Shown here: piece after piece, positions 5,072-52,198 of the stretch
Position numbering within the stretch: the stretch's first letter is position 1
Layout of the letters: each line of letters starts with the position of its first letter
From: Escherichia phage CMSTMSU
DNA: 64,000 bases
Sequence record: MH494197.1
Direction: 5' to 3' (one strand)
Made by a program: the position numbers and the translations under genes
Notes under the pieces: model-generated
The model's input: only the letters and a program-made list of their open reading frames with translations
Database searches by the model: none
What the model was told of the DNA's origin: nothing

Positions 5072-5500
5072 TCATGTGTAAATAATGATTCCTGAAAAAT
5101 GCTTCCTCTGATTTAATTTTATTATATTCAATCGATTGATCATTAGAATAAAATGAATCTTGATTTGAATTGTACCATGTGTAATCCAAATCATTCTTTG
5201 ATATAACTGGTGTTGGATTAAACTGTAAAAGACTAATAACACTACGGGCATTTGGGGTATCAGGTGTATTGAATCGTTTATCAAAATGACTCGTGCACGC
5301 AATATGTGAATCAAAATCAGATGGTTTAAACCCCATGAATGCGTTAATGATTCTTGTATATGGTTTTTATTATGTGCTGCTTTCTGTACATTATATAAGG
5401 CTGCAACAATACAAGCTAACTTTTGTCCCATAAGGATTGCATTAGCGTAGGTGTACTGAATTTCATTGTACTCATTGCTTTCATTGTACTTCGAGATCAT
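5072..5500 (-). CDS. hypothetical protein (alternative frame 5043..5336 suggests frame disruption)
   Basis: Two overlapping same-strand ORFs in different frames. Confidence 0.35.
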   Translation of the reverse strand: MISKYNESNEYNEIQYTYANAILMGQKLACIVAALYNVQKAAHNKNHIQESLTHSWGLNHLILIHILRARVILINDSIHLIPQMPVVLLVFYSLIQHQLYQRMIWITHGTIQIKIHFILMINRLNIIKLNQRKHFSGIIIYT

Positions 5501-5690
5501 GGAACAGCCTCACTTTGCCTAACTCGTCATTGGATATTAATTCGTTAACAGCTTTTTGTATATTCTTTAATAATAGCACATCAAATCCTTTTGTGTCAAG
5601 CACACATTGCATTTGGAAGAATTCTTCTTCTGATAATGTATTAAAATCCACAAAATTGTCTAATATTACGTCATTATCCAAATGTGCCAT
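5481..5690 (-). CDS. hypothetical protein, FQ-motif family
   Basis: TLSEEEFFQMQCVLD; close paralog of 5818..6129. Confidence 0.55.
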   Translation of the reverse strand: MAHLDNDVILDNFVDFNTLSEEEFFQMQCVLDTKGFDVLLLKNIQKAVNELISNDELGKVRLFHDLEVQ

Positions 5691-5817
5691 GTGCCATGTA
5701 TTTCTTTCGAGCGTTTAATAAAATTCCATCCATCTGGATAATCGGGTTCTAATTCTACATATATCCCCGATACTGTATAAAGCATTTTATATATCATAAC
5801 TATTGTACTCATTGTTT

Positions 5818-10238: not shown

Positions 10239-10503
10239 ATTTCTCTTTATTAGATTGTGTGGTTTTATAGTGAATGAAATCTATTAATGTAATCAAGTAC
10301 AACGTCAAATAGTACTCTTGTTGATCTGTACCTAATGATACAAAGAACTTGTGCTCATAGATTAAAACCTGTTTCTCTTCAAATGGACATTTAATCCTCT
10401 GTATAGGCTTAAGTAAATGATAGTACTTATTAAATCTATGATACATTTCTAGTTCTGTCAGTACTTTCATATTAAACACGTACTCCATTAGCTGTAGCAT
10501 CAC
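10228..10503 (-). CDS. hypothetical protein, LGT-motif family
   Basis: LGTDQQEYYLTLYL. Confidence 0.45.
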   Translation of the reverse strand: MMLQLMEYVFNMKVLTELEMYHRFNKYYHLLKPIQRIKCPFEEKQVLIYEHKFFVSLGTDQQEYYLTLYLITLIDFIHYKTTQSNKEKYEN

Positions 10504-10693
10504 GTAAAGCTGTCAAATACTTCTGTACTGCTTGCTCTTGCTTATTTGTACCTAAAAGTATATACATCCATAATTCACTGTAATGTACATCTTCTGTATA
10601 AGGGTTGTTGTAACTTTTTGATAATATAGCATCAAATTCAGATGCATGAACCCTTGTGAACTTAAGAATATCTTGTTGTGTTATGATTCTCAT
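10472..10693 (-). CDS. hypothetical protein, LGT-motif family
   Basis: LLGTNKQEQAVQKYL. Confidence 0.45.
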   Translation of the reverse strand: MRIITQQDILKFTRVHASEFDAILSKSYNNPYTEDVHYSELWMYILLGTNKQEQAVQKYLTALRDATANGVRV

Positions 10694-10899
10694 ATTTTTC
10701 CTGTACTATCTGTATAAGAATACCTATGTGTGAATTAACAGTTCTCTCTTGATGCTGTGTTCCTAAGAGTGTCAGTACTATCATATCTGAACGCAAAAGA
10801 TTTTTTCAAGTTCACTTATATCAGTTCTTGAATCAAGTGCCATATATTTGTGATTATTCTTCCTGAATAGTGCCAAGTACTCTTGATTTGATATTTCCT

Positions 10900-19454: not shown

Positions 19455-19530
19455 TTATTGGTGTGGGAGAACTATTCTCCCTTGATGTAAACTATTATAC
19501 AGTACTGATATACTTTGTCAAATACTTTTA
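19455..19530 (-). promoter_or_regulatory. promoter + stem-loop cassette (copy)
   Basis: ttgacaaagtatatcagtactgtataatagtttacatcaaGGGAGAAtagTTCTCCC on the minus strand. Confidence 0.55.
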
Positions 19531-21629: not shown

Positions 21630-22423
21630 CGTGATATTAGTTTTATTTTCTTATTGTATTGTTGATGCTCATAAAGGTTTATCTTTCCTGTGTTCTCGAT
21701 TACTATCCTGTTGTTAGTGTCCACATCGATTACACGCAGTTTCCGTTGCTTAACTTCCGGGTAATAGGTTACCATTAATAAACTCATTAGCAAGCTGTAC
21801 GGCCTTTGTGATGATTCTCTTCGGTGCTTTATAGTGTACCCGTAAGATGTTATCTTTATATAGTTGAACCTTAATCATTTTGTTTGTCCTATAAAAAGGC
21901 GGGAACTGATCCCGCCGTGTTGTTAGTACTGCAAGTTATTAGATAACCGGCGGCGTTTACTGTATACTGTTACACGATTACCCTTACGGTCGTGTCGGAT
22001 CTCTTTCTGGTTGCGAATCAGTTCACTTGGACGCTTAAGGTTTGCCGTGATCCGCGTGAGTCCATGCATTGGCATTTACCTGTACTTTGATATCAGAACC
22101 AGCGATAAACTCATCTTGTGCGTCAGTATTGCCGCCAGCATATCCGCTCGTTTTAGTTCTGCTGCTGTTAGTACTGGCTCAGGTGAATTCACAATATCAG
22201 AGATCTTTGAACTGTACGGCCCAGCGTTGGCCTTTCGGTGCATCTTTGCCCATGTCTTTAAATGCTGCTCCTTCCTCGCGTGCAACAATACGGGCAGCTT
22301 CACGGGTAGCGTAGAATTTAGTAATCATGGTATACATCCTATTAGTTAAGTTAGTACTACAAGTTAGAGTCTATTATAAAGTACTATCTGGGCAATGTCA
22401 AATAGTACTTTAAATGGATTCTA

Positions 22424-22624
22424 TTACATGTCTTTCTTACGTTTTACATCGTGGTAGCGAACTGTTATTTCTTTGTTGATCTCTTCCTCGATGCGGTGAA
22501 TAACTTTTTCTTTCGGGTTGAAACCTATAACGGTTTCTTTAATGATCTCAAGCCCGTGTATTCGCCTTGTGTACCGTAACCGTATGTAAAGGTTTCGTGT
22601 CCCGTGTCTTCCAGCGGTCGCCAA
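22424..22624 (-). CDS. C-terminal fragment of the preceding gene
   Basis: Overlapping same-strand ORF in a different frame. Confidence 0.35.
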   Translation of the reverse strand: MATAGRHGTRNLYIRLRYTRRIHGLEIIKETVIGFNPKEKVIHRIEEEINKEITVRYHDVKRKKDM

Positions 22625-22745
22625 TTAACGCAGACACGTAGCAAGAGTGGTAAGTATTGCCGTGTGAATCAGTCCACCGATTAACGTTAATGTCAAAGGA
22701 GGTTACAATTTTCAATTCTACTTTCTGGGCAAGGATCATAGCCAT
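22548..22745 (-). CDS. hypothetical protein with RWTDSHGNTYHSC motif (frame-disrupted; continues in 22424..22624)
   Basis: Motif shared with the gene at about 29.7-30.0 kb; starts after cassette 22765-22826. Confidence 0.4.
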   Translation of the reverse strand: MAMILAQKVELKIVTSFDINVNRWTDSHGNTYHSCYVSALIGDRWKTRDTKPLHTVTVHKANTRA

Positions 22746-22764
22746 TTTATTTCTCTCTTTTAGT

Positions 22765-22826
22765 TAGGAGGAACCATTCCCTCACTTGATGTAAACTATT
22801 ATACAGTACTAAGATACTTTGTCAAT
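22765..22826 (-). promoter_or_regulatory. sigma70-type promoter (TTGACA-N16-TATAAT) plus 5' stem-loop cassette
   Basis: Minus strand: TTGACA 22820-22825, TATAAT 22798-22803, then inverted repeat GGAGGAACC/GGTTCCTCC before the ATG. Confidence 0.6.
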
Positions 22827-22843
22827 ACTTATTTTTGGAAAGT

Positions 22844-23008
22844 TTACGCATTAATTCTACGCTTTCTTGTGAACGTTTTGCTACCGGCAAGCTGCATGGG
22901 TAGTAAACATTTTGTATAGTCTGACGCTTTGCCACCGAACCGAGCGGCACGTTCACGGGCACTTGGAACTAATACTATTTCTTTCTTGCAGATAGTGCAC
23001 TTAGCCAT
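22844..23008 (-). CDS. hypothetical small protein (54 aa, MAKCTICKKE…)
   Basis: Hand-translated; below the track cut-off; ATG directly after a promoter cassette. Confidence 0.4.
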   Translation of the reverse strand: MAKCTICKKEIVLVPSARERAARFGGKASDYTKCLLPMQLAGSKTFTRKRRINA

Positions 23009-23666
23009 TTTATTTCTCTCTCTTTGTTAGAGGGGAACCGTTTCCTCACTCGATGTAAACTATTATACAGTACTAAGATACTTTGTCAATACTTAATTAT
23101 TGTAAATGTCGTGAATAGTGATAAAGTTTTTACGACCGTAAACCTGCAAATCAATATCAATGTAGTGCTTATCTAGTACATCCTCGACGCTTAACGCGGT
23201 GTCGTGGATATCTTCGTAGAATTGAGTATCTACAATCTTGCTTAAGTCATCCGGCGTTAACTCATCGTTAAGCAGTTGAACCGCCGGATATCTGCTTCAC
23301 GTTTCCAGTCTTCCAGTTAGTAGTCAGTACTTGTTCGATTTCGTTAGCTGTCAGTAGAATCCGCATTTTTATGTTTCCTTATCAGTGGTTGATGTAAGTA
23401 TTATACTCGTTTACTTTCTATTGTCAAACTATTTTATCAGGGAGTTTTTCGTATGTCTTACTCGACTACTTAACGGGGTTACTTGTTTCGTTCCCCGTCC
23501 TGATGTAAAACATTATACTTGATTCTAAGTACAATGCAAGTACTTTTTAAAAATAGTTTTCAGTACTAGCCACCAGCAAACAATAGATACATTTATGCAC
23601 CCTGTGGGCTGATTTGTTTCTATGCGTATATAATAGCAAAGGACTGAATCCCTTATTCAATTATTT

Positions 23667-23816
23667 TTAAACTTCTTTCGGGTTGCGATAGGTGATAGCG
23701 TTCGGGTACATTTGTTTAATGTTATTCCATGCCCGGTTGACATTGTAACCACTTGATCGAATCAGTTGGTTACTACCGACACCTTGAAACACTACTTCGA
23801 ATAAGAATTCTTTCAT
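23667..23816 (-). CDS. hypothetical small protein (49 aa)
   Basis: Hand-translated; SD GAGGTGA 6 nt upstream of ATG. Confidence 0.45.
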   Translation of the reverse strand: MKEFLFEVVFQGVGSNQLIRSSGYNVNRAWNNIKQMYPNAITYRNPKEV

Positions 23817-24351
23817 GCTTTCACCTCGCGATCTGCTTTACCTTTACGCCGACATTACTAATTGTTCGCGTTGCCATAAGTCGAGTGATACAAAAGTTTT
23901 GCGGTATCACTTTTAGGATACTCGCCATTAGTACCTAACCGATAAAACAGATCTTTCAGTACTGATAATTCTACTTGGATCATTATACTTTCTCTTTGTT
24001 GGGAGGGAACTATTCTTCCGATATAAAACATTATACACTTTATTCAGTACAAGTACTTTTAATCTTTCAGCCAATGATCCTGAATGAATTTTTCACCGGA
24101 ACCTTGCTGCATTGATTGTAACAGACGTTCACGATGAGCGGCGGCGAATTGCTCAGTACTATGCGTTACACCGGTTGATATCTGGATTCACCATTGGGGC
24201 TGATGTATTGTACATCCCACGGTTTTTCGTTAGTATCAGACCATTTACGAACGATTAGTTGACCTTGCATTTTTCTTTCTCTTAGTGGGGAGAATCATTT
24301 CTCCCCTTCATGTAACTTATTATACAGTACTAGATTATCTTGTCAATAGTT

Positions 24352-24636
24352 TTATTCACCTTGTTTGAATTTAGTTTTCTCCATTGATTCCATGATTGCA
24401 ACCAATACGCCGTGGATCTCGCTTAACGCGGAATCACTAAAAGCATTAATGAATAGTCGATCATTCTCGCGAATATTTTTAATGTACTTTTCAGCAGTAG
24501 TTGCGAATTCATTCAACGGTAGATCAAATGCTTTATCCCATGATGGATGGCGTAATTGTAACAGTACTGGATTATCACGATCACGGGAAAACGTACCAGT
24601 GATGAAACATACGCCCGAATACTTTCGAACTGGCAA
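24352..24636 (-). CDS. hypothetical protein (94 aa)
   Basis: Track ORF. Confidence 0.45.
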   Translation of the reverse strand: MPVRKYSGVCFITGTFSRDRDNPVLLQLRHPSWDKAFDLPLNEFATTAEKYIKNIRENDRLFINAFSDSALSEIHGVLVAIMESMEKTKFKQGE

Positions 24637-24994
24637 CGGACTTCCTTTGTGATAGTAGTATGAATGTACATTTATTGTTATCCTCTATTAAATTAATATT
24701 ACAGTTTATGAATCAATTCTTTATCTAAGCGATAGCGTACATTATTAATAGTAACGGCATTGTTTTAATGCTACGCTGTACAGGTCCACCAGCAATAACA
24801 AATGTTGCTTTATTACCCCGAACAATGATAGCACTTCCGTGATTACCGAAATCATCTTGTACTAAAATACTTGATAAGTTTTCCATTTTATTTCTCTTAG
24901 TAGGGAAGATGTTTCCTTGATGTAAGTACTATAACAGTACTGAAAACTAATTGCAAGTACTATGATAAAATCATGATAGGATATTCACTATCGA

Positions 24995-25279
24995 TCAGTA
25001 CCTCGAATCCGAACCCTTCGTACCATTCTTTAAGATTAAAGGCGTTATCTTCTCCGTATCGCATTCTAAGATGATACAATCTGAATCATCAGCGGCATCG
25101 ATAAAGGCATTCATTAATTCGTTACCTTCACCATTGCCCCGACTATCAGGATCAACATAAAGAGAATCAATGAAAGCAACACGGTCATAATCAAGATCCG
25201 GTGCAATGATTCCACGTTTAACAAACCAGTACTGCAATTGTGCTACTTTGCTGTACCTGATAACCAGTGATCTCGCCAT
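24995..25279 (-). CDS. GNAT-family N-acetyltransferase, central fragment (full frame-disrupted gene about 24971..25313)
   Basis: VAFIDSLYVDPDSRGNGEGNELMNAF resembles the GNAT acetyl-CoA-binding motif A; …LKEWYEGFGFEV continues in another frame. Confidence 0.55.
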   Translation of the reverse strand: MARSLVIRYSKVAQLQYWFVKRGIIAPDLDYDRVAFIDSLYVDPDSRGNGEGNELMNAFIDAADDSDCIILECDTEKITPLILKNGTKGSDSRY

Positions 25280-25462
25280 TGTCAGTAGTACGCGTGATAT
25301 GTTGTATTCCCATGATTTCTATCCTCAGTTAAGATATAAAACATTATACACTATCTTTCAGTACTGTCAATTACTTTTATCTCATAGATCTATGCCAACA
25401 ATTACGCGGATCTCTTTAAAAGTACTATCATGATCCTCCGGCAAGTAATACAATACATGCAC

Positions 25463-25630
25463 CTATAACGGCCCGGCGTCGATTCTCAGGGATTTTACCG
25501 CCGCAGTCGAGGCAATGTACAGTGATTCTCTTTGTGCGTTAATTTGCTTTCTAGCGTGGTTAACGGCGGCCTGAATCACTGCGTTAATCTCGTCTTGTTC
25601 GGCCCCGTCTTTCGCGAATCCTACAGCCAT
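25463..25630 (-). CDS. hypothetical small protein (55 aa)
   Basis: Hand-translated; MAVGFAKDGAEQDEINAVIQAAVNHARKQINAQRESLYIASTAAVKSLRIDAGPL. Confidence 0.4.
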   Translation of the reverse strand: MAVGFAKDGAEQDEINAVIQAAVNHARKQINAQRESLYIASTAAVKSLRIDAGPL

Positions 25631-25962
25631 TATTTTAACCTCATTATAAAAATACTATAGTACTGTAATGCTACAATAATACTACTAGTGCTAATCTTAT
25701 TCAAACCACATGATACTACATATCCACCAGCATTACCACGGATAGTAACGCCTTTGTACTGTCTATATAAATTCAACTGCGTATATTGCCTTTGATCAAG
25801 AATTGATCAGAATTATACGCCTTATGCTAAATTGATCCAGTACTTTTGATCATTTATTGATCGATGTTATATAGTTACATTTGTGCACCCTATGGGTTAG
25901 TGACGTTCTCGTCTTGATGTAAGTATTATGCCAGTACTGGAGGATATTGTCAATAGATTATT

Positions 25963-26160
25963 TTAATTTTTTCTATCATTAATTAATGCTTTCAGTACTA
26001 TACTAATAACTTGCAATGATTCATCAATGACAATGAAATTATTCTCTTTCATTAGATGATAGTTACCATTGATTGTATATTCTAACGAGTACTGTTTACG
26101 TTTAATTTTTGATAATGTTTCTATTTGTTTTTGTACTGATTTCATGCTAATCATTGTCAA
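25963..26160 (-). CDS. hypothetical protein
   Basis: Track ORF. Confidence 0.4.
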   Translation of the reverse strand: MTMISMKSVQKQIETLSKIKRKQYSLEYTINGNYHLMKENNFIVIDESLQVISIVLKALINDRKN

Positions 26161-26258
26161 ACGTCCTGTAACGCATTCTAACGAGATAAACGGTTGAGTA
26201 CTGGCATTGTATAGGGTAATGATTAAAGCCCACCAGCGTTAACCAGTGGGCTATAATC

Positions 26259-26402
26259 TTACATCTTGCGGATAATCTTAACAGTATCTTTCACCGATTT
26301 ACCGTTTTGCTGACATTGCTCGATCATCGCGTATTGTTCTGCGGTCAGATCCTCGCCAGTTTTTGCCAGTACTGCGTCGATGAATGAATCCAGTGCGATC
26401 AT
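26259..26402 (-). CDS. hypothetical small protein (47 aa)
   Basis: Hand-translated; followed by hairpin AGCCCAC…GTGGGCT. Confidence 0.4.
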   Translation of the reverse strand: MIALDSFIDAVLAKTGEDLTAEQYAMIEQCQQNGKSVKDTVKIIRKM

Positions 26403-28067
26403 TTTGTTTCTCTCTTAGGTTAAGTTAACTACTGTTTATAAAACTTATTATACAGTACTATCAAACTATGTCAATAGTACTGGTAATATATTTTAGCGGT
26501 AGTCGTCGTATGCTTTATTCACGGCGAATATAACTTTCAAAGGCTTCGTCTACCGTTTCATACTCCCGAACATAATCACCATATGAAACTACATACATAC
26601 CTTTTGATCTTCAAACGTCATGATGATAGAATCCAGACCAACGATTTCAGTTTTTGCGATGATAGCCATTTTTAATTCCTTAGTAGTGTAGTTGATAAAA
26701 GTTATTATGTCAGTACTATCAAACTATGTCAATAGTACTGTGATAATATTTTAGTTAATGATAGTCAGTGTAAAATTGTAATCCCCTGCCCGTATAGTAC
26801 TTTATCGCCGAACGTTCCAACACGTTTCATATTGCAATAGATACCCATAACACTTTTACATCTTTGATATTCCGAACGCCAGTAATATCCTTGTTTAAAT
26901 GATCGTGATCAGAAAATAAAACTTGTTTTGCATTTTTCAGTACAGTGCAGATATTAGCCATTTTGTTTTCTCTTCTGTTAGTGGGGAGAAGTTTTTCTCC
27001 CTTGATGTAAACTATTATACAGTACTATAATCTATTGTCAAACTATTTTTTATATTATTCGAAATCTTCTGGACCGGACTGATAATCATCTTCACCGTAT
27101 GCACTTTCTAACCGCTCGCCAGTGCAATCATCAGTTAGTGAGTCATCCTCATAGTTCACGTCTACGCCAGTGATGTAAAACTGGCTATCGTCTGGATCAT
27201 TGAAATTAATTTTCTGGATGTTTACAATAACTGTATTGATGCCGTGACACCGCCATCAGCCGTTACAAAGTACTGATATTTTTCACAACCGCCTGAATTG
27301 AAACCGTAATTAATTTCGGCCCGACCATCACTTAAACGCAGTGTCTGAGCGATGATTTCATTTTCAAAGTTAGATTGAGCAATTGCAATAGTCATGATTT
27401 GTTTCTTATTATCAGGGAAACCGTTTCCCTTTCGATGTAAAACATTATACGCTTATCAGGAAGTAATGCAAGTACTATTTCACGTTAATTTCAAAGTACT
27501 GCTCTTTGATGTTTTCCTGTTGGTAAATCTCGTTTAATGCTTTAAGATCTAAAACCTGTTTACCTGCTGCCTGAATATACTTTTAAGAGTCGCTAACAGC
27601 TTCTCAGGCGTGTTTGTAGTCTTACGTGTTGGGATCTTATCGTGCCCCATAGCGTAGTACTGCTTACGTGCTATAGTACTGATAACACTGCGGTACGGTT
27701 CCATGATCAGCTTGTCTGTATTCGTCGCTATCCCCAAACTTCATACCGTGGATCGCAAAGGTCATCATCATGCGGTCGTTATCGCGGATATTGTGGGGCA
27801 GTCGGCAAGCTCGCGAGTCAGTGACATAGTGATCCCCACGTCGCCACCCAGCGGTAAAGGTCGGGCGATAAAGAAACCGTTAGGGAATACTTTCAGGAAG
27901 TTTTCTTGAACTGCTGCGACGAATTCGATGCTATTCATAATTCATTTCCTTAATTAGTGGGGAAGTTGTTTCCTCTTGATGTAAAACATTATACGCCTAT
28001 TGAGATAGTTTGCAAGTACTTTCTACAAATACTTTTAAAATAGTTTTCAGTACTCAATACTCATATA

Positions 28068-28165
28068 ATAGATACACTTATGCACCCTGTGGGCTAGTGA
28101 GCTATCTCTCAATGAATATATAATAGCAAAATGGCTGACCGAGTCAACCACTTTTTCATTTATTT
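28068..28165. repeat. ~90-bp repeated intergenic element (copy)
   Basis: atagatacacttatgcaccctgtgggctagtgagctatctctcaatgaatatataatagcaaaatggctgaccgagtcaacc. Confidence 0.55.
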
Positions 28166-28271
28166 TAGCTTTTAGAATCGCCGCCTTTCGCGTCATGCCT
28201 TGCTTGATGTATTCTGTACTTTCGCTTTACGTGCATTCGCTTTATTTGCTTTCGTAAACGCCGAACAACTT

Positions 28272-28529
28272 TTATAGTTTAAACCTGTTGGATTCATTTA
28301 AATCACCATAAAGAATAGATAGGTTACTAACAACGCCGCGATCAATGCACCGACCGAACTGTAATAAGCTAATGATCTCATTTTTAGCCTGAAAATAATG
28401 TTTAATTTGAGCGGCGGTCAGTGCACAATTACGCAGGAAGTTTTCTGTATAACTTTTGCGAGTACTGAAAGAGAATTGACCTTTGCTGCTGCCGATAGTA
28501 ACATCAAACCGAGCGTTGTATTGTTTCAT
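28272..28529 (-). CDS. hypothetical protein (85 aa, start MKQYNARF)
   Basis: Track ORF trimmed to the ATG that follows the promoter cassette (ggagaaacaaaATG). Confidence 0.45.
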   Translation of the reverse strand: MKQYNARFDVTIGSSKGQFSFSTRKSYTENFLRNCALTAAQIKHYFQAKNEIISLLQFGRCIDRGVVSNLSILYGDLNESNRFKL

Positions 28530-28544
28530 TTTGTTTCTCCTGTT

Positions 28545-28625
28545 ATTGGGGAGAATCATTTCTCCCTTCATGTAAAACATTATACAGTACTAAAACTAAT
28601 TGCAAGTACTATTTTTAGATTTACG
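28545..28625 (-). promoter_or_regulatory. promoter + stem-loop cassette (copy)
   Basis: …ttgcaattagttttagtactgtataatgttttacatgaaGGGAGAAatgaTTCTCCCC… followed by ATG 28529. Confidence 0.55.
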
Positions 28626-29691
28626 CAAACTTTCTACCATCTCAGGAGTAAGGTCTGCGGGTAGGAAACTACTTCATCAACGAAACGTAAAGGAATACCC
28701 CAGCGAAAGGTGAACGTGCTTTCTTAGTATTACTCTTTTTGATGCTTTCATTTCATATTCTTAATTAGTGGGGAGAATCATTTCTCCCTTCATGTAAAAC
28801 ATTATACGCGTTTAAAACTAATTGCAAGTACTATTTGAAAGTAAATGCTCATACGCTACATTAACTACGTTTTCAATAACCGACTGTACAGAAAGATCCC
28901 CACTTCCGGCTATAGTAGAAATCGCTTACAGTAGTGTCATCGTATGCAAATACTTTACCGTGACTGCATCAATCACATACATATTAACCTTTAAGATGTC
29001 GATCTTATCCTGTACAGTAAGCATATTAATTAACCTTTTAAGTACTGACTTAAGTAATCTTGTTGATCTTCGGTGATTGCAGCCATCTTCCCTAGTACTG
29101 GATTAATGATATAATCCCTGTAACGTCCTGTAACGCATTCTCAGGCGGTTTAACGGCTGGGGTAGCCATAGCCATTGCCGACTTGTTCGACGCTGTAACG
29201 CTCATAAAGGCGGCATTCTTCCGGTGTTAACATAGCATCAATGCGTTTCATTGGTTTAATGATGCTTTCGATCTCATTCAGTACTTGATTAACGTTCATG
29301 GTATAATCCCAATATAAGCGGCCTAAATCGACCGCTAACGATGTTTTGATTAATAGGTGTATGGTTGACGTTCAAACAATGATTGCACGTTGTACGCCCC
29401 GCTTATGGGCTTTGCTGGTAAATCAATTTTATATTGTTCACGCTTAAAGATAATAAAACGGCAATTGTTTTAACATCAAAATTGATTGAACGTTCCGAGT
29501 TTACCATCGTGCACAAATACAAGATAACCGCTCGCTACTTGTTTTGTAGTACTGGTTGCAACCATAGACCGCCGAACATGTGTACCTGCGTCGATTAAAG
29601 TACTGATATTTTTCATTTTACTATCCTCTTAAGTTGATTTAATTTCTTTCCCTATGCAGACACTGTACCAAAGTATCTGCATAAAGTAAAG

Positions 29692-29973
29692 CTAATTAAA
29701 GATCTTTTTACGTTTTACATCCTGTACAGTACAATGCAACGGGATAGACAAATCATTGCACAAACGATAGAGGGAGGTTTCATCAGTATTAAGCCCGTCT
29801 ACTGATTCCTTTAAGAGAGATAACGCCGTTTGTTGGTATGCATCTTCATAGCCATAAGTAAATGATTCAACCGCCAGATCATTCAAGCCGTTATCCAGTT
29901 CGACGCTTACATGACAAGAATGATGTATTGCCATATGAATCAGACCAACGTTTACCGTCAACATTGATTGCAC
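29692..29973 (-). CDS. hypothetical protein (fragment; paralog of 22548..22745)
   Basis: An upstream frame encodes …VDGKRWSDSYGNTS…, the same motif as the 22.6-kb gene. Confidence 0.4.
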   Translation of the reverse strand: MQSMLTVNVGLIHMAIHHSCHVSVELDNGLNDLAVESFTYGYEDAYQQTALSLLKESVDGLNTDETSLYRLCNDLSIPLHCTVQDVKRKKIFN

Positions 29974-30338
29974 GGATTGCAGCCGAAACGGTGTTAATGA
30001 TAGTTTTAGCCATTTTAGTATTCCTTAAATTAATATGTGTCGTCTTGATAAAATCTATTATGCCAGTACTATCAAACTATGTCAATAGTACTGTGATAAT
30101 ATTTTTACTTACTTTTTGCTTTCTTTATTGCTTCCACCGGTCGGCCCATTCTTTACCCCATACTTGTAAATTATAATGGTACTGGCAAAGTGCAACGCCC
30201 CGCTTTAAACCAGTAATAGATTTTTACCACATTGACAAGTTTTCATTTTAGTTTCCTTGTAGTGGGAGAACCATTTTCCCCTTGATGTAATGTATTATAC
30301 TTTATTCGATTTACTTTGCAAGTACTTTTTAATTTAAT

Positions 30339-30551
30339 TCATCCGTAAAGGATACGCTCAACGCCCAAATCAGTTAAACTAATCGACGGCACTTGATAGG
30401 TTTCAATGTATGCTACACTTGCCCACTGACCGAACTCATTAACGGCCGTATTCATTGCATTTTGCAATTCCACACCTTCCTTGTTGGTAATGACTGCAAC
30501 TACTTGTTCGTTGCCAGTAGTACCAGATACGCGAGTAATGATAATAGCCAT
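30339..30551 (-). CDS. hypothetical protein (70 aa)
   Basis: Track ORF directly downstream of a promoter cassette. Confidence 0.5.
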   Translation of the reverse strand: MAIIITRVSGTTGNEQVVAVITNKEGVELQNAMNTAVNEFGQWASVAYIETYQVPSISLTDLGVERILYG

Positions 30552-44795: not shown

Positions 44796-45024
44796 TTCAA
44801 GTTCCTTCCATATTTTACAGCATTTCAAGAATTCAATTTTACATCGTTCAATTCGAATACACGATATAGTGGGTCTTTATACTGGAATACATTTTACGAA
44901 GGTAATAATGTATGGATGAATGGATATAATCCTGAAAATACGGGTGGAAAGAATTTCTCATTGTGTTCAATACCGTTAGATACTATTATTACTAAGCAAA
45001 TTGATTTACCTTTTTGAATACTAT

Positions 45025-45053
45025 GCCAGTACTCAAGTACTGGCTTTTATTTT
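45025..45053 (+). terminator. rho-independent terminator
   Basis: GCCAGTACtcaaGTACTGGC + TTTTATTTT. Confidence 0.6.
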
Positions 45054-45087
45054 ATTAAATATAGTATAATGAATAAAGGAGGGAAAT

Positions 45088-45606
45088 ATGTTACCTTTTG
45101 CAAGAATGGTTAAGTACGGGAATAAACAGCCTATTCCTGAACCAGTTGAGTTCACTGATGTTTTACAGCAACATTATACTAATGCTATGTATCTACATAA
45201 GCCCACGAATACACTATACGGTTATGGTGGTAATAACTTGAGCCAATTAGGTCTAGGGAATCAATCGACAGTTTCTACTTTTACAGTACTGGCAACGCAC
45301 TGTGCAGCCTTTTGGTTAGGCGTTCATGGCTCATTGATGATTGACTTGGATAATAGAATATATTTCACAGGGAATACAGTAGCATTCCCCGATTATGGAG
45401 ATGCAACTCCAGTTAATGGTTATTTTAGAACATGGACTGATGTTACTGCCGCATTTGACAAAATAAATGTACACGCTAATTTAATCAAGAGTGTACATAT
45501 AGGTGAAAGTACTAGAATATTACTACACGATGGAAGAGTAGTTGTTTGTGGTAAAATGCAAATGCCGAATGTGGAACAGGTAACCAAAATCCCATACCAG
45601 TACTAA
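45088..45606 (+). CDS. RCC1-like repeat protein, unit 3 N-part with leader
   Basis: MLPFARMVKYGN; YGYGGNNLSQLGLGN. Confidence 0.5.
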   Translation: MLPFARMVKYGNKQPIPEPVEFTDVLQQHYTNAMYLHKPTNTLYGYGGNNLSQLGLGNQSTVSTFTVLATHCAAFWLGVHGSLMIDLDNRIYFTGNTVAFPDYGDATPVNGYFRTWTDVTAAFDKINVHANLIKSVHIGESTRILLHDGRVVVCGKMQMPNVEQVTKIPYQY

Positions 45607-45784
45607 CAGTTGTTACTGGTATGGGTGAAGTTCTCAATTGGCGTGTTCATTACAGGGTACGCACTATCTCAAAACAAATAAAGAAGCATGGTTTTGTGGT
45701 AAGGATAACTTTGGTGAAAGTGGTGCTGGGACTAGCTCATACGTTTTACTAATAAGTTAATACGATCCAACGTCGATTATATAA

Positions 45785-46273
45785 GTGCTACTTATGATGT
45801 TACGGTGGTTCACTGCCGGTAGGGTGTACTGGAGTGGTAGAAACAATTCTGGACAAGCTGGGAATGGTACTACTTCAACCACAAACCAATTAACTACAGT
45901 TCAGAATTCACAGGTTATAGTGAATATTAGTGATGGTTTCCTGTGTCCTAGTAATATGGGTAACTCAACAATTGGTGCACCTATGGCTCAATACCCATCA
46001 TATGTCAGAGTGCAGGCATCAATACATATGGTCAAGAAGGGACGGAAATACAACAGTAATTACTTCGTGGGGGCGTTTTCTTTAAGTGCGATACAGGGTG
46101 GATATGACAATGTTCTTATGGCATCCAAAGACTGGTCCAGAACAATAATTATAACTAAAGATTATAAATTATATGCATGTGGGGGCTTTAACGGTTCAGG
46201 TGGTAACTTACCGGATGGTACTTCCGTAATTAAAACATTAACATTAATGCCAACGCAGTTATGGCAATCATAG
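45785..46273 (+). CDS. RCC1-like repeat protein, unit 3 C-part
   Basis: WSGRNNSGQAGNG repeat. Confidence 0.45.
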   Translation: MLLMMLRWFTAGRVYWSGRNNSGQAGNGTTSTTNQLTTVQNSQVIVNISDGFLCPSNMGNSTIGAPMAQYPSYVRVQASIHMVKKGRKYNSNYFVGAFSLSAIQGGYDNVLMASKDWSRTIIITKDYKLYACGGFNGSGGNLPDGTSVIKTLTLMPTQLWQS

Positions 46274-46282
46274 GAGAAAATC

Positions 46283-47404
46283 ATGTTACCTTTTGTTAGA
46301 ATGTTTGATTATGGAAATGAAGCACCTGATCCTAGTTCGGGATTTCGAATAATAAGTACAGGAGACGCATTACTATTAATTACTAAGAGTGGTGATTTGT
46401 GGGTGCGTGGTTATAACCGTTATGGCAAGTTAGGTATAGGTAATAACACCACTACCTATGTACTTGATTGGACGAAGGTTAGAAGTGATGTAAAGTTTGC
46501 GTGTGGTAGTGGATTGGTAACAGTTATCTTTACTAAGGGTAATCGCATATTGTACTGTGGTGACAAATGGTTTGAAACGGGTGGTGTTGGTAGTGCACAG
46601 ATTTTCACATGGACAGATGTTACGCACCAATTTGGGGCAGTAGATTTGAGTACAGTAAGGGATATGAAAATGTCTTATTACACGATTGGATTATTGACTA
46701 CTAATAATCAATTATACGCTAAGGGATATGATAATAACCTATCATTTGGTGGGGTTAGTAATAAGGCGACTGCTGTGTTTATTGCGAATAATGTACAAGA
46801 GTTGTATACGAGTTTAGTTAGTACAATCTACGTTGATACAAGTGGTATATTACATCGTTGTGGCATGAGTGATAACGGTTCGTTGGGTAATAATGTTAAT
46901 TTAACTTCGTATCTAAGTTATTCACAGACTGGTATGACGATTAAGGACATTGGAATGATGACTACGAACACTGGGTTATTATATACTGATTCTAGTGCAC
47001 GCACGAGATATTTTATTGCTGGACAGAACTTGAATAAACAGATGGGTAATGCGGCGGCTGCGAGTGCCATTACGAGTACTTACACAGAGCTTTCTGGTAG
47101 TGTTGATAAGTTTTCTTCTTTATGGGCGAATGATGGGATATTGATGACATTTGCTGTGGGTAAGAACACTAATCAGTTATTTTATGCTGGGATGAATACT
47201 TTTCATGCGAGTGGTGGTGTATCTTCATATGCGGATACATATGAGTTAGTCCCGATGGTGTTTAATGACATACAGGAAGTGTTATGTGCACAGCGTTTAT
47301 CGGTGGTACATGATTCTACGAAGTGGTATTACTGTGGTGATGCTAATTCAATGTATGGTTTACCGGACGTAAGTACTTTTACTGAGTTACCGTTGCCCTT
47401 TTAA
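46283..47404 (+). CDS. RCC1-like beta-propeller repeat protein (intact, 373 aa)
   Basis: Leader MLPFVRMFDYGN; about seven ~50-aa repeats (e.g. WVRGYNRYGKLGIGN); stop immediately before a hairpin terminator. Confidence 0.7.
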   Translation: MLPFVRMFDYGNEAPDPSSGFRIISTGDALLLITKSGDLWVRGYNRYGKLGIGNNTTTYVLDWTKVRSDVKFACGSGLVTVIFTKGNRILYCGDKWFETGGVGSAQIFTWTDVTHQFGAVDLSTVRDMKMSYYTIGLLTTNNQLYAKGYDNNLSFGGVSNKATAVFIANNVQELYTSLVSTIYVDTSGILHRCGMSDNGSLGNNVNLTSYLSYSQTGMTIKDIGMMTTNTGLLYTDSSARTRYFIAGQNLNKQMGNAAAASAITSTYTELSGSVDKFSSLWANDGILMTFAVGKNTNQLFYAGMNTFHASGGVSSYADTYELVPMVFNDIQEVLCAQRLSVVHDSTKWYYCGDANSMYGLPDVSTFTELPLPF

Positions 47405-47411
47405 TAATAGG

Positions 47412-47440
47412 TCAGTACTGAAATATGTACTGGTATTTTT
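47412..47440 (+). terminator. rho-independent terminator
   Basis: CAGTACTGaaatatGTACTGG + TATTTTT. Confidence 0.5.
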
Positions 47441-47476
47441 GTAAATACTATATAATTTAATTACGGAGATTTTATT

Positions 47477-48049
47477 ATGTTACCTTTTGTTAGAATGTTT
47501 GATTATGGGAACGTCGTTGAGCGACCTGTGGGTACACGTTATACCTGTAGTGACTATAGTGCGACTTATAGTTTAATAAAGGATGGTGTGTTATATGTAT
47601 CTGGGATGAATAACTATTATCAGTTAGGTAATAACACTAACGTAACACGTTACAACGAGTGGTTAAAAGTTCCAGAGACTGATAGTGTTAAGTTTTGTAG
47701 TACTGGTTATAGTCAGACAATGTATATTACTAACAATGGGAGGATAATGATAGCTGGTGAAGATCCTACTTCCAGTGCGACGGCGGTAAGTGTTAAGGTA
47801 TGGACTGATATAACTTCTAGATTTAGTGCAGTTGATACAAAGAAGATTGTTTATATTTCAATAGAACGCTTTGGTGTAATGATGATCATGCAAGATGGTT
47901 CAGTATGGGCGTGTGGAGTTGATAATACTGGTTGGAGTGGGCAGGAAGTAAAACTGTTGGTTTCTTTACTTTCAGACAAATATACACCGGAAGTGCAGGA
48001 AGTGCAGTTGCTGGTACTGCTGGTACTGGTACTGCGAGAATTCTGTTAG
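47477..48049 (+). CDS. RCC1-like repeat protein, unit 5 N-part with leader
   Basis: MLPFVRMFDYGN; YVSGMNNYYQLGNN. Confidence 0.5.
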   Translation: MLPFVRMFDYGNVVERPVGTRYTCSDYSATYSLIKDGVLYVSGMNNYYQLGNNTNVTRYNEWLKVPETDSVKFCSTGYSQTMYITNNGRIMIAGEDPTSSATAVSVKVWTDITSRFSAVDTKKIVYISIERFGVMMIMQDGSVWACGVDNTGWSGQEVKLLVSLLSDKYTPEVQEVQLLVLLVLVLREFC

Positions 48050-48320
48050 CTAATGGAACAATCTTGTCCGCTGGTACTAATACATATCATCAATGTAATG
48101 CTAGTACTGATCCGGCTGTTCTAACATTCACTGAATCATTCCACGGGTTGATCCTTCATTGATATATCAAATCAAGATGTGTAATAACAACTGTATTATA
48201 TTTTGAGTGATAAGAGATATTACGGTACTGGCTGGGAAGTTTTGGTGCATTGGGTGATGGTGATATTACGGGTTCGAATAATAAATTCTATGCAGGTACA
48301 TTGTCAGTTGCTCCTAAAAC

Positions 48321-48653
48321 ATGCGTGCTTATATGTCGTATCTATGTAGTTCTTCTGGGGATTCTAGTATGTACATAGGCGATGATAATTTCATATACAC
48401 CTGCGGTTATCGTGGGAGGAACTTAATAAATGCCACTACAGATATTGGTACGTTCACGAAATGCATTCAAAGTGCACAAGGATACAAGAATGGACTTATA
48501 TATAGTGGGAATTATTGTGCTGTAGTTTTTGATCCAGATTTGGGTTCAGGAATGTCATATGCGGTTTCATCACCAAAATTGAATGCACCAGCACCACAGG
48601 CGAGTGTTCCAACATTGGGTATGAGTTCGTTACAAGCTATTATTTTACCATAA
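48321..48653 (+). CDS. RCC1-like unit 5 C-terminal fragment
   Basis: Ends just before terminator 48661-48690. Confidence 0.4.
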   Translation: MRAYMSYLCSSSGDSSMYIGDDNFIYTCGYRGRNLINATTDIGTFTKCIQSAQGYKNGLIYSGNYCAVVFDPDLGSGMSYAVSSPKLNAPAPQASVPTLGMSSLQAIILP

Positions 48654-48660
48654 CATTATA

Positions 48661-48690
48661 CCAGTACTGAAATATGTGCTGGTATTTTTT
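48661..48690 (+). terminator. rho-independent terminator
   Basis: CCAGTACtgaaatatGTGCTGG + TATTTTTTT. Confidence 0.5.
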
Positions 48691-48815
48691 TAAATACATT
48701 ATAATTATTATATGGAGATTTTAGTTATGTTACCTTTTGTAAGAATGTTTGATTATGGGAATACAGTGGCTGCTCCCACTGGTATAAAGGATTTCAAGCA
48801 AATGGAAGCCACTGT

Positions 48816-49211
48816 ATGGCACTAACATATAGTGGTGAGATGTGGGCTTATGGTACAAGTACAAGTGGATCAATGGGAACCGGATTCACGGTGGGTGCTG
48901 CTGATAAGGGTTGGTACAAGTCTAACATTAGTAATGTTAAATCATTCAGTTCTAATATGCAGACTAGCACAGTGGCTTTGACAAATGATGATAGAGTGCT
49001 AGTTTGTGGCTCAACTAGATTTGACAAATTCAGTACTCCAGATATTGCATCATCTAACCTTGATTGGTTGGATGTTACTGATCATATTCCACAGGAAGTT
49101 ATTGATGCTGGGATGAAGCAAGTTATTAACCACGTATATTATGTTGCCATTTTACTGAAAACAATCTATTATATAGTGTGGCATTATCTTTGGGTAATAC
49201 TAGTACTATAA
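48816..49211 (+). CDS. RCC1-like repeat protein, unit 6 fragment (leader ATG at 48726)
   Basis: Leader MLPFVRMFDYGNTVAAPTG… terminates early in a different frame. Confidence 0.45.
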   Translation: MALTYSGEMWAYGTSTSGSMGTGFTVGAADKGWYKSNISNVKSFSSNMQTSTVALTNDDRVLVCGSTRFDKFSTPDIASSNLDWLDVTDHIPQEVIDAGMKQVINHVYYVAILLKTIYYIVWHYLWVILVL

Positions 49212-49310
49212 TAGATAGAACATGGAGAAGAAATACATTTGGTGATATACAAGTTGAACGTGTTGTTTCGTTGACACAAACCCCAAGTGGTCCTTTGTGT
49301 ATAGTTCAAG

Positions 49311-50324
49311 ATGCAGACGGATACCAGTATGGTATTGGATATAATGGTAATAAGATTATTGATAATACTTCCACTAATTCATATTCTGTATATACCAAAA
49401 TGGGTACACTTCCTTACAATGAATTTGCCATATCGAATAGCGGGAAATTCAGTTCAGCGGTATTATCAGATGGGAGAAGTGTTTATAGTGGTACATTTCC
49501 AAAGTCATTCAATAATAGTTTTGGTTCATTTTGAAAGTTGGTGCGGTATCAGATACTGTGTTTGGTTTAGATGCAAAAATATGCGTGGTCAATATGGTCA
49601 AAATCAATTACCAATTGCGTCGGCTGATAACAATGCAAGTAATGGCGTTGTGAACCTTCGTAATGTTCCAGCGGGAACACAAACGAAAGACATTCGATTT
49701 ATATGCGGAAATGATGTAAAGAACGTTTATATCATATACACAAATGAAGACGGCATTAGCTCATTTTATGGATTGGGACCAAACTTTGATCAAAATTCCT
49801 CAACATATGCACAATTCGTCAAAGTGGATTTGCGGGGCATTATCAAATTAAGGAGAGAAATATGTTACCTTTTGTTAGATTGTTTGATTATGGGAATATC
49901 ACACGGTCCTAAAAATATAATTAAAGTTGGTGCTTCTACACAGGGTCAATTCTTATTGACAGATTCACATGATTTATATTACATAGGTAGAAATCAAGGT
50001 GGTGAATCTGGAAATGGAAATACCAACACAGTATCCTCATGGATATTAGTAAGTACAGATGTTTCTAATTTTTTCGTGGGTGATCGTACACTTGTTATTA
50101 TTAAAAATGATAATACGATATGGTCATCAGGTCAAACGTACTGGTTCACATCTTCCACAACTACTTCTTACAGTACTGTATTAGTTGATAGAACCAGTTG
50201 GTTTACCAATGCCATACCAGTAAGTGAAATTGCTGATATAGTATGTTCGTATGGTTTAATATTTGTACTTAGCACTAGTTCAGTACTCTATGGTGCAGGG
50301 CTAATGGATATCGTGGTGCTTTAG
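49311..50324 (+). CDS. composite ORF spanning units 6/7 (RCC1-like, frame-disrupted; internal leader ATG at 49862)
   Basis: Internal aaggagagaaatATGttaccttttgttaga leader in another frame. Confidence 0.4.
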   Translation: MQTDTSMVLDIMVIRLLIILPLIHILYIPKWVHFLTMNLPYRIAGNSVQRYYQMGEVFIVVHFQSHSIIVLVHFESWCGIRYCVWFRCKNMRGQYGQNQLPIASADNNASNGVVNLRNVPAGTQTKDIRFICGNDVKNVYIIYTNEDGISSFYGLGPNFDQNSSTYAQFVKVDLRGIIKLRREICYLLLDCLIMGISHGPKNIIKVGASTQGQFLLTDSHDLYYIGRNQGGESGNGNTNTVSSWILVSTDVSNFFVGDRTLVIIKNDNTIWSSGQTYWFTSSTTTSYSTVLVDRTSWFTNAIPVSEIADIVCSYGLIFVLSTSSVLYGAGLMDIVVL

Positions 50325-50966
50325 GTATTGGTTCATCATCAATTTACACATTAACTCAATGTGCTACTAATGTGCGTAAAGTAATGACGAATGCAAATGA
50401 CAGTATGTATATTACATTAGATAATAAGTTATATAGTTCTGGGTGGAATGACCGTGGATTACATGGCACAGGAACAGAACACAAGTTAACATTTGGGGAC
50501 TGCGTAGTTCTGGTGTAATAGATGCAGCTATTGGTGGACATACACTCAATTACTATAATGGTACATCATATTTCACATGTGGTACAACTCCAAACTTTCT
50601 TAGTTCAGATTCAACTACATTCAAAGCAGTTCCTGTAAGTACTTTACCTAATAATTCACCTTTGTTTATGACAAATTCAGAGGCAACAAGCACGGCTACG
50701 CAAATTATATTAACTAGTGCATATCAGAAAGGTATTGGAAACCGTGGTTTGGGATTAAACAATTCTCAAACGGTGCTATCTATAGTGCTGCTAATTTACA
50801 ATTACCTGTAGAAGTTAGTGAGATTAGTGATGTTGCTTTTAGTGACGGATTAACATCATTATTAACCAAAGACGGAATGTATATAGTACTGGATCGTATT
50901 ACGCCATTCCGTGCAAGTGCAGATGTTGCAGTCTTTACTAAAATTGATTTACCAAAATAACATAAT

Positions 50967-50993
50967 GCCAGTACTTGATACTGGCTTTTCTTT
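50967..50993 (+). terminator. rho-independent terminator
   Basis: GCCAGTActtgaTACTGGC + TTTTCTTT. Confidence 0.6.
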
Positions 50994-51028
50994 GGTTAAA
51001 TATAGTATAATGAATAAAGGAGGGAATT
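50994..51028 (+). promoter_or_regulatory. conserved 5' cassette (TAAATATAGTATAATGAATAAAGGAGG) of RCC1 unit 8
   Basis: Identical module upstream of at least 11 units, always between hairpin terminator and ATG. Confidence 0.5.
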
Positions 51029-52198
51029 ATGTTACCTTTTGCAAGAATGGTTAAGTACGGGAATATTGCACCTGTTCGCCCTGAAATAAAGAAATTGGAT
51101 GGTAGTCAATTACATGTCGGATTACTATATAGTACTGGTAATATGTATATGCGTGGTTCTGGTTCGAACTACAAGTTAGGTACAGGTGATGCTAGTGATG
51201 TATTAGATGGTTGGGTACATGTACCCTATGAAGTTGATGATTTTTGGGCGTGTGTGTCCGGTACATTAATAAAGACTAAAGACAATAAGTTATATTGTGC
51301 AGGACTATACATGGGTGGATATTTTGGTGCTAGTGGTTCATATGTTAACTGGACTGAAGTAACTTCATTATTTGTGGGTATTAACGTCTCACAAATAAAG
51401 AATATAGAATTTACATCAGCGAGTACTTCCGGTAGTACACTAATATTGATGTTAGATGGTAGTTTATATGGGTTCGGTATGAACAGTAGGTCGGAGTTAG
51501 GTGTTAATAACAAAGTCGTATCTCCTATTCTTATAGATACTGGGGTAAGTTCAATAGGAGCACATAAATTAGGTGGTTCATCGTTCCATTATATAAAAGA
51601 CGGTAAGTACTACAGATGTGGGACCGCGATTGGTAGTAATATAGGAAGTTCTTCTTTAACTACATTTACTGAATTGAGTATTGCTGATAATGTTATATCT
51701 ATGCAAATATTATTTGACAACGTACAGTTATTATGTTTTGGTAGTACTGGATATAGTATCTATATGGCTGGTTCTAATGATTATGGTGGAAGAGGTGTTG
51801 GTGGTAGTACTGTTTACACTACATTCAGGAAAATAGATCTTACTGGATTTGGTGTTGTTCCCAGTGAAATACTATTTGAAAATGCAGGGAATGGTTATGT
51901 TAATATATCAACTGATAGTACTGGCATATATACATGTGGTGGTGGTGCTGGTGTTAATGGTTTAGGTAGACCGAGTAATGTTATATCAAGTTCACAGTTG
52001 GGTTTGATTGAGTTCAGTACAGGATTATACCCAGCAAATATAAGTCGTGTATTTTCACAGAGTTCATCTTCTGTTATATATTGTATAGTTAATAATGAAT
52101 TGTACTGGGCTGGGAGTAATTCATATTTTACTGATCAAACTACAAATACTGGTACACAATTTTCATTTATTAAGATGAAGGATATGCCTTCTGCTTAG
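51029..52198 (+). CDS. RCC1-like beta-propeller repeat protein (intact, 389 aa)
   Basis: Leader MLPFARMVKYGN; preceded by terminator + TATAAT + AAGGAGG; stop directly before hairpin terminator. Confidence 0.7.
   Translation: MLPFARMVKYGNIAPVRPEIKKLDGSQLHVGLLYSTGNMYMRGSGSNYKLGTGDASDVLDGWVHVPYEVDDFWACVSGTLIKTKDNKLYCAGLYMGGYFGASGSYVNWTEVTSLFVGINVSQIKNIEFTSASTSGSTLILMLDGSLYGFGMNSRSELGVNNKVVSPILIDTGVSSIGAHKLGGSSFHYIKDGKYYRCGTAIGSNIGSSSLTTFTELSIADNVISMQILFDNVQLLCFGSTGYSIYMAGSNDYGGRGVGGSTVYTTFRKIDLTGFGVVPSEILFENAGNGYVNISTDSTGIYTCGGGAGVNGLGRPSNVISSSQLGLIEFSTGLYPANISRVFSQSSSSVIYCIVNNELYWAGSNSYFTDQTTNTGTQFSFIKMKDMPSA

Follow-up and report, generated by a model that had tools for sequence, protein, structure and literature searches.

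PHROG 6246 is a catalogued family of phage proteins of unknown function, with annotated members in the jumbo coliphages 121Q (gp303, PBI_121Q_303) and WPEC3 (CDS019 and CDS046) and in phage phi92 (gp231). Two genes that belong to this family, here called A and B, are found in a 64,000-nucleotide stretch of DNA from Escherichia phage CMSTMSU (sequence record MH494197.1), referred to below as the window. Both are on the minus strand, A at 22424-22745 and B at 29692-30013. Judged by their sequences, A and B are new members of PHROG 6246 and diverged paralogs of each other, and the frameshifts that break both of them in the window are errors of assembly or base calling. We consider it very probable that the family identity and the artefact conclusion hold together. 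A and B have the same length, the same motifs and the same placement in small early-gene arrays as the catalogued proteins, from which the window copies are set apart solely by deletions of the sequencing-error type and by a few substitutions.

The surroundings of the two genes are well represented among known phages. Megablast of positions 22300-30300 retrieved 82 phage records, nearly all of them jumbo coliphages of the 121Q/PBECO4 group (Asteriusvirus). The top record was Escherichia phage WPEC3, with 98% coverage and 94.5% identity, and the 40-52 kb part of the window is 98.4% identical to phage Turkey3. These alignments place the window in an Asteriusvirus-type jumbo coliphage of the 121Q/PBECO4/WPEC3 group. 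Small minus-strand genes, with a strong promoter ahead of each, form an array in region 22300-30300.

The preliminary description of this DNA, made from the letters alone, had proposed a pair of paralogs that share an RW(S/T)DS(H/Y)GNT…HSC motif. The peptides are indeed present. The open reading frame (ORF) 22548..22745 (minus strand) codes for VNRWTDSHGNTYHSCYVSA, and the ORFs 29891..30013 and 29692..29973 (both minus strand, in two frames) code for VDGKRWSDSYGNTS and HHSCHVSVELDNG, respectively. When the missing bases are put back, two ORFs of 107 codons result. The repaired A and B proteins can be aligned over all 107 residues without a gap at 37% identity (E 9e-29). Their WPEC3 orthologs, which are clean 107-codon ORFs (L001, 3004..3327 and 10384..10707), align in the same gapless manner at 40% identity across 107 residues (E 3e-30). 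Cross-comparison of the two loci by tblastn inside the window gave E values of 1e-12 to 8e-14. The similarity extends far beyond the short motif that first drew attention. It takes in the segment ExFTYGY, the helix after it and the C-terminal DVKRKKD[LM], reaching the end of the chain. On this evidence A and B are diverged paralogs, about 37-40% identical, of one 107-residue protein family.

The profile searches lead to the same family. When the entire window was translated in six frames and searched with a profile of 100 family members, only loci A and B matched, and their fragments tile the profile (1-43, 38-71 and 65-108 for A; 6-32 and 33-106 for B). The WPEC3 orthologs of A and B match PHROG 6246 with E values of 4.6e-37 and 1.3e-40, respectively, in both cases with residues 1-107 on positions 3-113 of the 113-position profile. 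A possible third paralog at 5484-5774, indicated by a weak tblastn match (E 0.059), had no match in the profile search and was discarded.

Gene A (22424..22745, minus strand) is spread over three frames in the window as a result of two single-nucleotide deletions, both private to this sequence. The codons of its β1-β2 hairpin motif, RWTDSHGNTYHSC, are placed at 22641..22679 by the translation and the repaired ORF. The first lesion lies at 22601..22616, where the relatives have CGCTGGGAAGACCTGGG and the window has CGCT-GGAAGACACGGG. A run of G is short by one G near 22611, and the neighboring Dcm site CCTGG is miscalled as CACGG. The second lesion, at 22544..22554, is the loss of one nucleotide near 22550 from the GG directly before GATC: two relatives have GGCTTGGAGATC and WPEC3 has GGTTTAGAAATC, while the window has GGCTT-GAGATC.

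Gene B is affected by three deletions of 3, 2 and 1 nucleotides. The gene itself, 107 codons after repair, runs from 29696 to 30013 on the minus strand, and the end at 29692 given in the preliminary description is the stop of a shifted frame. The codons of RWSDSYGNT(Y)HSC are at 29914..29950, as placed by the translation and the repaired ORF. The 2-nucleotide deletion, at about 29925, falls within the Tyr codon of GNTYHSC, where TT is lost (AATACTTATCAT becomes AATAC--ATCAT). The 3-nucleotide deletion (29980..29989, near 29985) is in frame, lies at the Dcm site CCTGG, changes TTTCCCTGGCTG to TTTC---GGCTG and removes one Leu. The single-nucleotide deletion (29701..29712, near 29711) is located in a run of six A beside GATC, changing CGTAAAAAAGATC to CGT-AAAAAGATC and the C-terminus from ...RKKDL* to ...RKKIFN*. 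Thus the split of B by a frameshift, as originally described, is present in the sequence. It is a sequence error, however, and B contains three lesions rather than one. Two of these three had been overlooked, as had the breakage of A by its two deletions.

All five lesions are of a kind. The missing bases are present in three independent relatives (for A, these were WPEC3, Turkey3 and 121Q). Two of the lesions are at or beside the Dcm sequence CCTGG; the others are in the A6 run that adjoins GATC, in GG before GATC and in TT. The same pattern is found throughout the compared DNA. Over 8,457 aligned columns, the alignment of the window with WPEC3 opens 121 gaps, 107 of them deletions and 14 insertions in the window; 73 of the 121 adjoin an identical base, and CC[A/T]GG is the site of several. 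In the comparison with Turkey3 (45000-49900, 4.9 kb, 98.6% identity), there are 20 deletions and 1 insertion, located in T5, A5 and G4 runs and at CCWGG. Overall, in both 21800-30500 and 45000-49900, the window has a systematic excess of 1-2-nucleotide deletions relative to every close relative, concentrated in runs of T, A, G and C and at CC[A/T]GG. Neighboring genes that code for 134-155 residues in WPEC3 are fragments in the window, and the intergenic DNA and promoters are affected as well. A bias towards deletions at homopolymers and at Dcm and Dam motifs is typical of unpolished nanopore (long-read) assemblies. Because the deletion-biased pattern also breaks the neighboring genes and the intergenic DNA, the frameshifts in A and B are attributed to deletion-type assembly or base-calling errors, which occur about once per 80-250 bases window-wide, and the genes are whole in the phage lineage as read from its relatives. 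Two points limit this attribution. The error call rests on comparison with relatives, and about 3% of the positions differ by substitution, so that some of the intergenic indels may be real.

AlphaFold gave confident and congruent models for both paralogs. The predicted local distance difference test (pLDDT) and predicted template modelling (pTM) scores were 97.2 and 0.87 for repaired A, and 92.8 and 0.82 for the ortholog of B. The secondary structure elements follow in identical order in the two models: a short N-terminal strand comes first, followed by strands 14/16-25, 31-41 and 44-55, helices 60-72 and 83-90, and strand 93/94-100. The models confidently depict a compact α/β (β3-α2-β) domain, in which a meander of three strands is followed by two helices and a fourth strand. 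Foldseek found no match below E 0.014 over the whole Protein Data Bank (PDB), BFVD returned only uncharacterised family members, and searches of PDB sequences with single sequences and with the 100-member profile yielded nothing real.

The predicted fold is similar to the βββα beginning of the RNase H-like topology, a generic resemblance that does not assign membership. The RNase H-like/ASKHA βββαβα fold, which is found in the Hsp70 ATPase subdomain, sugar kinases, the terminase nuclease and PIWI, shares with the family the order of its first elements, in which a helix comes after a meander of three strands, and the placing of the conserved loops, which are at one end of the sheet. These weak structural neighbors might suggest that A and B are minimal RNase H-like nucleases or ASKHA-like nucleotide-binding half-domains, but this appears improbable. 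RNase H-like nucleases carry catalytic carboxylates (Asp on β1, Glu or Asp on α1, Asp after β4) on a five-stranded βββαβαβ core, whereas the family has no conserved ones. ASKHA ATPases are duplicated domain pairs with a DxGxT phosphate-1 loop, whereas the family protein is a single domain of 107 residues with no Pfam match, and Asp26, which corresponds to the Asp of the ASKHA loop, is found in just 14% of the members.

Residue conservation in the family was derived from column frequencies in 100 diverse members. Trp24, Tyr32 and Gly56 are invariant, and Arg23, Gly29, Asn30, Thr31, Tyr55, Tyr57, Val101, Arg103 and Asp106 are conserved in at least 90%. The signature of the family can be written as [GA]-[RK]-R-W-x4-G-N-T-Y-H-[ST] … Y-G-Y-G-x2-Y-x-Q-T-A … D-V-x-R-K-K-D-L, the last element of which is the exact end of the chain in 73 of 99 members. 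The R-W, G-N-T-Y, Y-G-Y and D-V-x-R-K-K-D-[LM] elements are whole in both repaired window proteins.

The H-S-C of the motif was earlier suggested to be a metal-binding or catalytic site, and a conserved His next to Thr and Tyr could indeed serve in catalysis or contact a phosphate: His33 is present in 88% of the members and Ser or Thr34 in 89%. Nevertheless, it is quite improbable, even more so than a nuclease or ASKHA origin, that H-S-C forms such a center. Cys35 is Cys in only 11% of the members and Val in 68%, and 30 of the 100 members contain no cysteine whatsoever. In 12%, the position of His33 is taken by Phe, Asn, Tyr or Ser. A metal site would need at least three conserved Cys, His or acidic ligands, but the 100 members contain no conserved His, Cys, Asp or Glu partner set for His33, and no metal-binding Pfam family, YHS for example, was matched at E <= 1. 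A His/Cys metal site as a feature of the family is therefore not supported by the alignment.

The lesions in A and B could also be taken as biological, with both paralogs decaying to pseudogenes in this phage. Both copies are disrupted, and B is an accessory gene, missing from part of the genus, whose orthologs have a ratio of nonsynonymous to synonymous substitution rates (dN/dS) of 0.24-0.30, estimated on few sites, and are less constrained than those of A. Decay is nevertheless slightly less probable still than the metal site. The same indel bias is found in the intergenic promoters, in almost all neighboring genes and in a distant part of the window, and about one frameshift per 80-250 bases would be incompatible with a viable phage. 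The lesions lie in short base runs, at or beside Dcm CCWGG or Dam GATC. In each of the 35 related phage records with at least 90% identity, moreover, gene A is an unbroken ORF for 107 residues, and its dN/dS of 0.03-0.06 indicates very strong purifying selection across all 35 relatives.

A programmed ribosomal frameshift or transcriptional slippage in B, giving two products, would explain why the GNT|YHSC break sits precisely in the most conserved motif, but the chance of this is negligible: the gene is in a single frame, whole at 107 residues, in 26 of 26 close orthologs with at least 90% identity, as is the family gene in 213 of 213 family-bearing records, AATAC--ATCAT is no slippery heptamer, and two more deletions in B and two in A are at unrelated positions. 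Pseudogenisation and programmed frameshifting are both rejected because the lesions are private to the window, the orthologs are whole and the indel bias is general.

An equally negligible chance is given to paralog A being avidin-like (a biotin-binding β-barrel), which was suggested by a phmmer match of A to the PDB sequence 2c4i_A (E 1.4e-6; 0.05-0.8 to native avidins): the likeness is local (55-70 residues) and confined to paralog A, with neither B nor the family profile matching avidin; 2c4i_A is an engineered tandem avidin, so that its score sums two copies of a weak match (0.18-0.33 each); and the eight-stranded β-barrel is incompatible with the matched region, which is predicted (pLDDT >97) as the two helices 60-72 and 83-90 and not as barrel strands. 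Another candidate, the animal-type phosphomevalonate kinase 7xnd_B, was matched by the family profile at a sub-threshold E of 0.1, probably by chance. The matched segment, ...VSDIRRKTDI|RWFKETYGD..., has the C-terminal motif of the family followed by the N-terminal RW...YGN, i.e. in circularly permuted order.

PHROG 6246 is a large family. An exhaustive profile search found 1,917 representatives of 50%-identity clusters at E <= 1e-3, most of them 90-130 residues long, and an indexed search found 1,095 proteins among 90% clusters at E <= 1e-5. The best 120 of these 1,095 matches are all named 'hypothetical' or 'uncharacterized protein' and none has a Pfam domain. The phage collection contains 213 records with a member, mainly Asteriusvirus and Stephanstirmvirinae (phi92 gp231), and members are also found in phages of Cronobacter, Pectobacterium, Klebsiella, Pseudomonas, Stenotrophomonas and Campylobacter. 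A tblastn search of plasmids gave no family match. Scans of both paralogs against Pfam (E <= 1), NCBIfam and PADLOC were without a match, and literature searches on the family motif, PHROG 6246 and the early genes of Asteriusvirus returned nothing relevant.

In all the phages examined, the family gene either belongs to a co-directional series of small genes without annotation, as in phi92, in the Pseudomonas and Stenotrophomonas phages and in the metagenomic contigs, or, as in one Autographiviridae phage, is among the early genes upstream of the RNA polymerase. A survey of 80 viral-contig loci and 7 metagenome or genome contexts found only a helix-turn-helix Cro/C1 protein, DUF4417 and recombinases as recurrent neighbors, all in one clade of gut temperate phages. 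The remaining neighbors in the survey were small unannotated genes that gave no functional lead.

In a minority of members, the domain forms the C-terminus of multi-domain proteins of 200-590 residues, the other parts of which have no Pfam match. Ten such fusion proteins were scanned against Pfam, NCBIfam and PADLOC without a match. Among the anti-phage defence models of PADLOC-DB, the two paralogs and four fusion proteins matched 0 families at E <= 0.1, and PHROG scans of the fusion partners gave just weak matches to other families of unknown function. One fusion protein (P0074) adjoins a gene with an LPD3 domain. This domain marks the 'polyvalent proteins', which are proposed to be deployed on entry by phages and conjugative elements (Iyer et al. 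2017, PMC5512222). As described in passages of that paper, many LPD domains are found in early or accessory regions, as are the solo members of the present family, and the use of the family domain as a C-terminal module of larger proteins is a further point of likeness. A difference is that no Pfam LPD family matches the family domain or its fusion partners. No mention of the family domain was found in those passages of PMC5512222.

On the JGI metagenome contig Ga0373622_0050565 (L006), positions 1207-2985 encode a 592-residue multi-module protein with KGG-type linkers and the family domain near its C-terminus. The gene lies next to one with an LPD3 domain and next to a weak glycoside hydrolase 19 match, and the locus looks like a phage 'polyvalent protein' locus.

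The promoter cassettes reported ahead of both genes were confirmed. Gene A is preceded by a sigma-70 promoter at 22825..22798 (minus strand), TTGACA-16-TATAAT, which matches at 12 of 12 positions and is part of a repeated cassette (22762-22833, family D1). The promoter of gene B, at 30085..30057 (minus strand), is TTGACA-17-CATAAT with an extended-10 TG and matches at 11 of 12 positions (families D5/D7). It lies within a 104-nucleotide repeat (30002-30105), a second copy of which is at 26649-26752. In total, the minus strand of 22300-30400 (8.1 kb) has eight 12/12 TTGACA-16/17-TATAAT promoters and three 11/12 promoters with extended-10 TG, embedded in the 30-100-nucleotide repeated cassette families D1-D7. 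The hairpin in the 5' leader of the gene A cassette is as stable as shuffled sequence (z 0.10), the window stretch having three deletions there.

Some of the cassettes have further common elements. One subtype, which runs on as TATAATAGTTTACATCAAG, has four copies in the window, at 19481, 19970, 22785 and 27001. Three copies of AGCCCACAGGGTGCATAAATGTATCTAT (23577-23610, 25865-25898 and 28062-28095, in minus-strand sense) are located directly downstream of TATTAT/CATAAT promoter-like boxes, and this conserved segment is a leader or operator-like element common to a subset of the cassettes. ARAGORN found no tRNA in the window.

The copy number of A and B in the virion may be related to the genome ends. 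In phage vB_Ec-M-J, the ortholog of B is inside the annotated 21.5-kb direct terminal repeat (L012, 1-621). In the WPEC3 record (384 kb, with both repeats deposited), query proteins A and B match 2 and 4 places, respectively. These counts would be as expected if both paralogs were in the terminal repeat, with two copies per virion genome.

A second gene array lies elsewhere in the window, at about 45000-52000 on the plus strand. It is a tandem array of paralogous genes for proteins of ~300-390 residues, whose orthologs in Turkey3 are annotated as 'regulator of chromosome condensation' or HERC1-like (RCC1-repeat β-propeller). This array varies among relatives more than its flanks do, and only 41-42% of the 12-kb query is covered in any record.

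The position of A and B in an early array, each with its own sigma-70 promoter, suggests that they may act early in infection. In the models, R-W is at the end of β1, G-N-T-Y-H-[ST] forms the β1-β2 hairpin and Y-G-Y-G is at the end of β3. Since β1 and β3 of the meander are predicted to run alike, we infer that these three motif groups are at one edge of the sheet, where they are probably joined by the D-V-x-R-K-K-D-L tail that follows β4. The edge would then present Trp, three or four Tyr, His, Asn, Thr and three or four Arg or Lys, a putative site for a universal ligand. Phages whose hosts differ widely have almost the same motif, and for this reason a universal ligand is favored, with a nucleotide or nucleic acid seeming more likely than a host-specific protein. 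A putative ligand-binding role of A and B as early accessory proteins, in host takeover or counter-defence, is proposed tentatively and is on balance rather unlikely to be correct as it stands. The proteins are not in any structurally characterised anti-defence family because no solved structure resembles the model.

Several points weigh against this proposal. The convergence of the motifs was derived from the order of the strands and not from coordinates, and the orientation of β4 was not given by the tool. The isoelectric point is variable in the family (median 7.9, range 4.7-11), and both window paralogs are acidic (5.0 and 5.9), which disfavors a general DNA-coating role.

A broader proposal, which is doubtful and more so than the early accessory role itself, is that PHROG 6246 is an unrecognised, widespread ligand-binding module, the target of which, bound early in infection, would be some universal nucleotide or nucleic acid. 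The aromatic and basic edge might then, for example, sequester an immune signal or shield an RNA or DNA end, and the two diverged copies in Asteriusvirus might cover different ligands or hosts. The range of such a module, which is absent from Pfam, would comprise phages of enterobacteria, Pseudomonas and Stenotrophomonas as well as gut and marine communities.

For the phage itself, the practical consequence is that any split gene, frameshift or pseudogene call in the window should be distrusted until it is compared with relatives. For the family, the finding leaves the current understanding unchanged. Nevertheless, PHROG 6246 is large and uncharacterised, its motif is nearly invariant, and its fold, predicted with confidence, has no known relatives. 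It is a reasonable, if not exceptional, candidate for screens of early phage genes. There would be a modest upside if the family did prove to be a new ligand-binding module.

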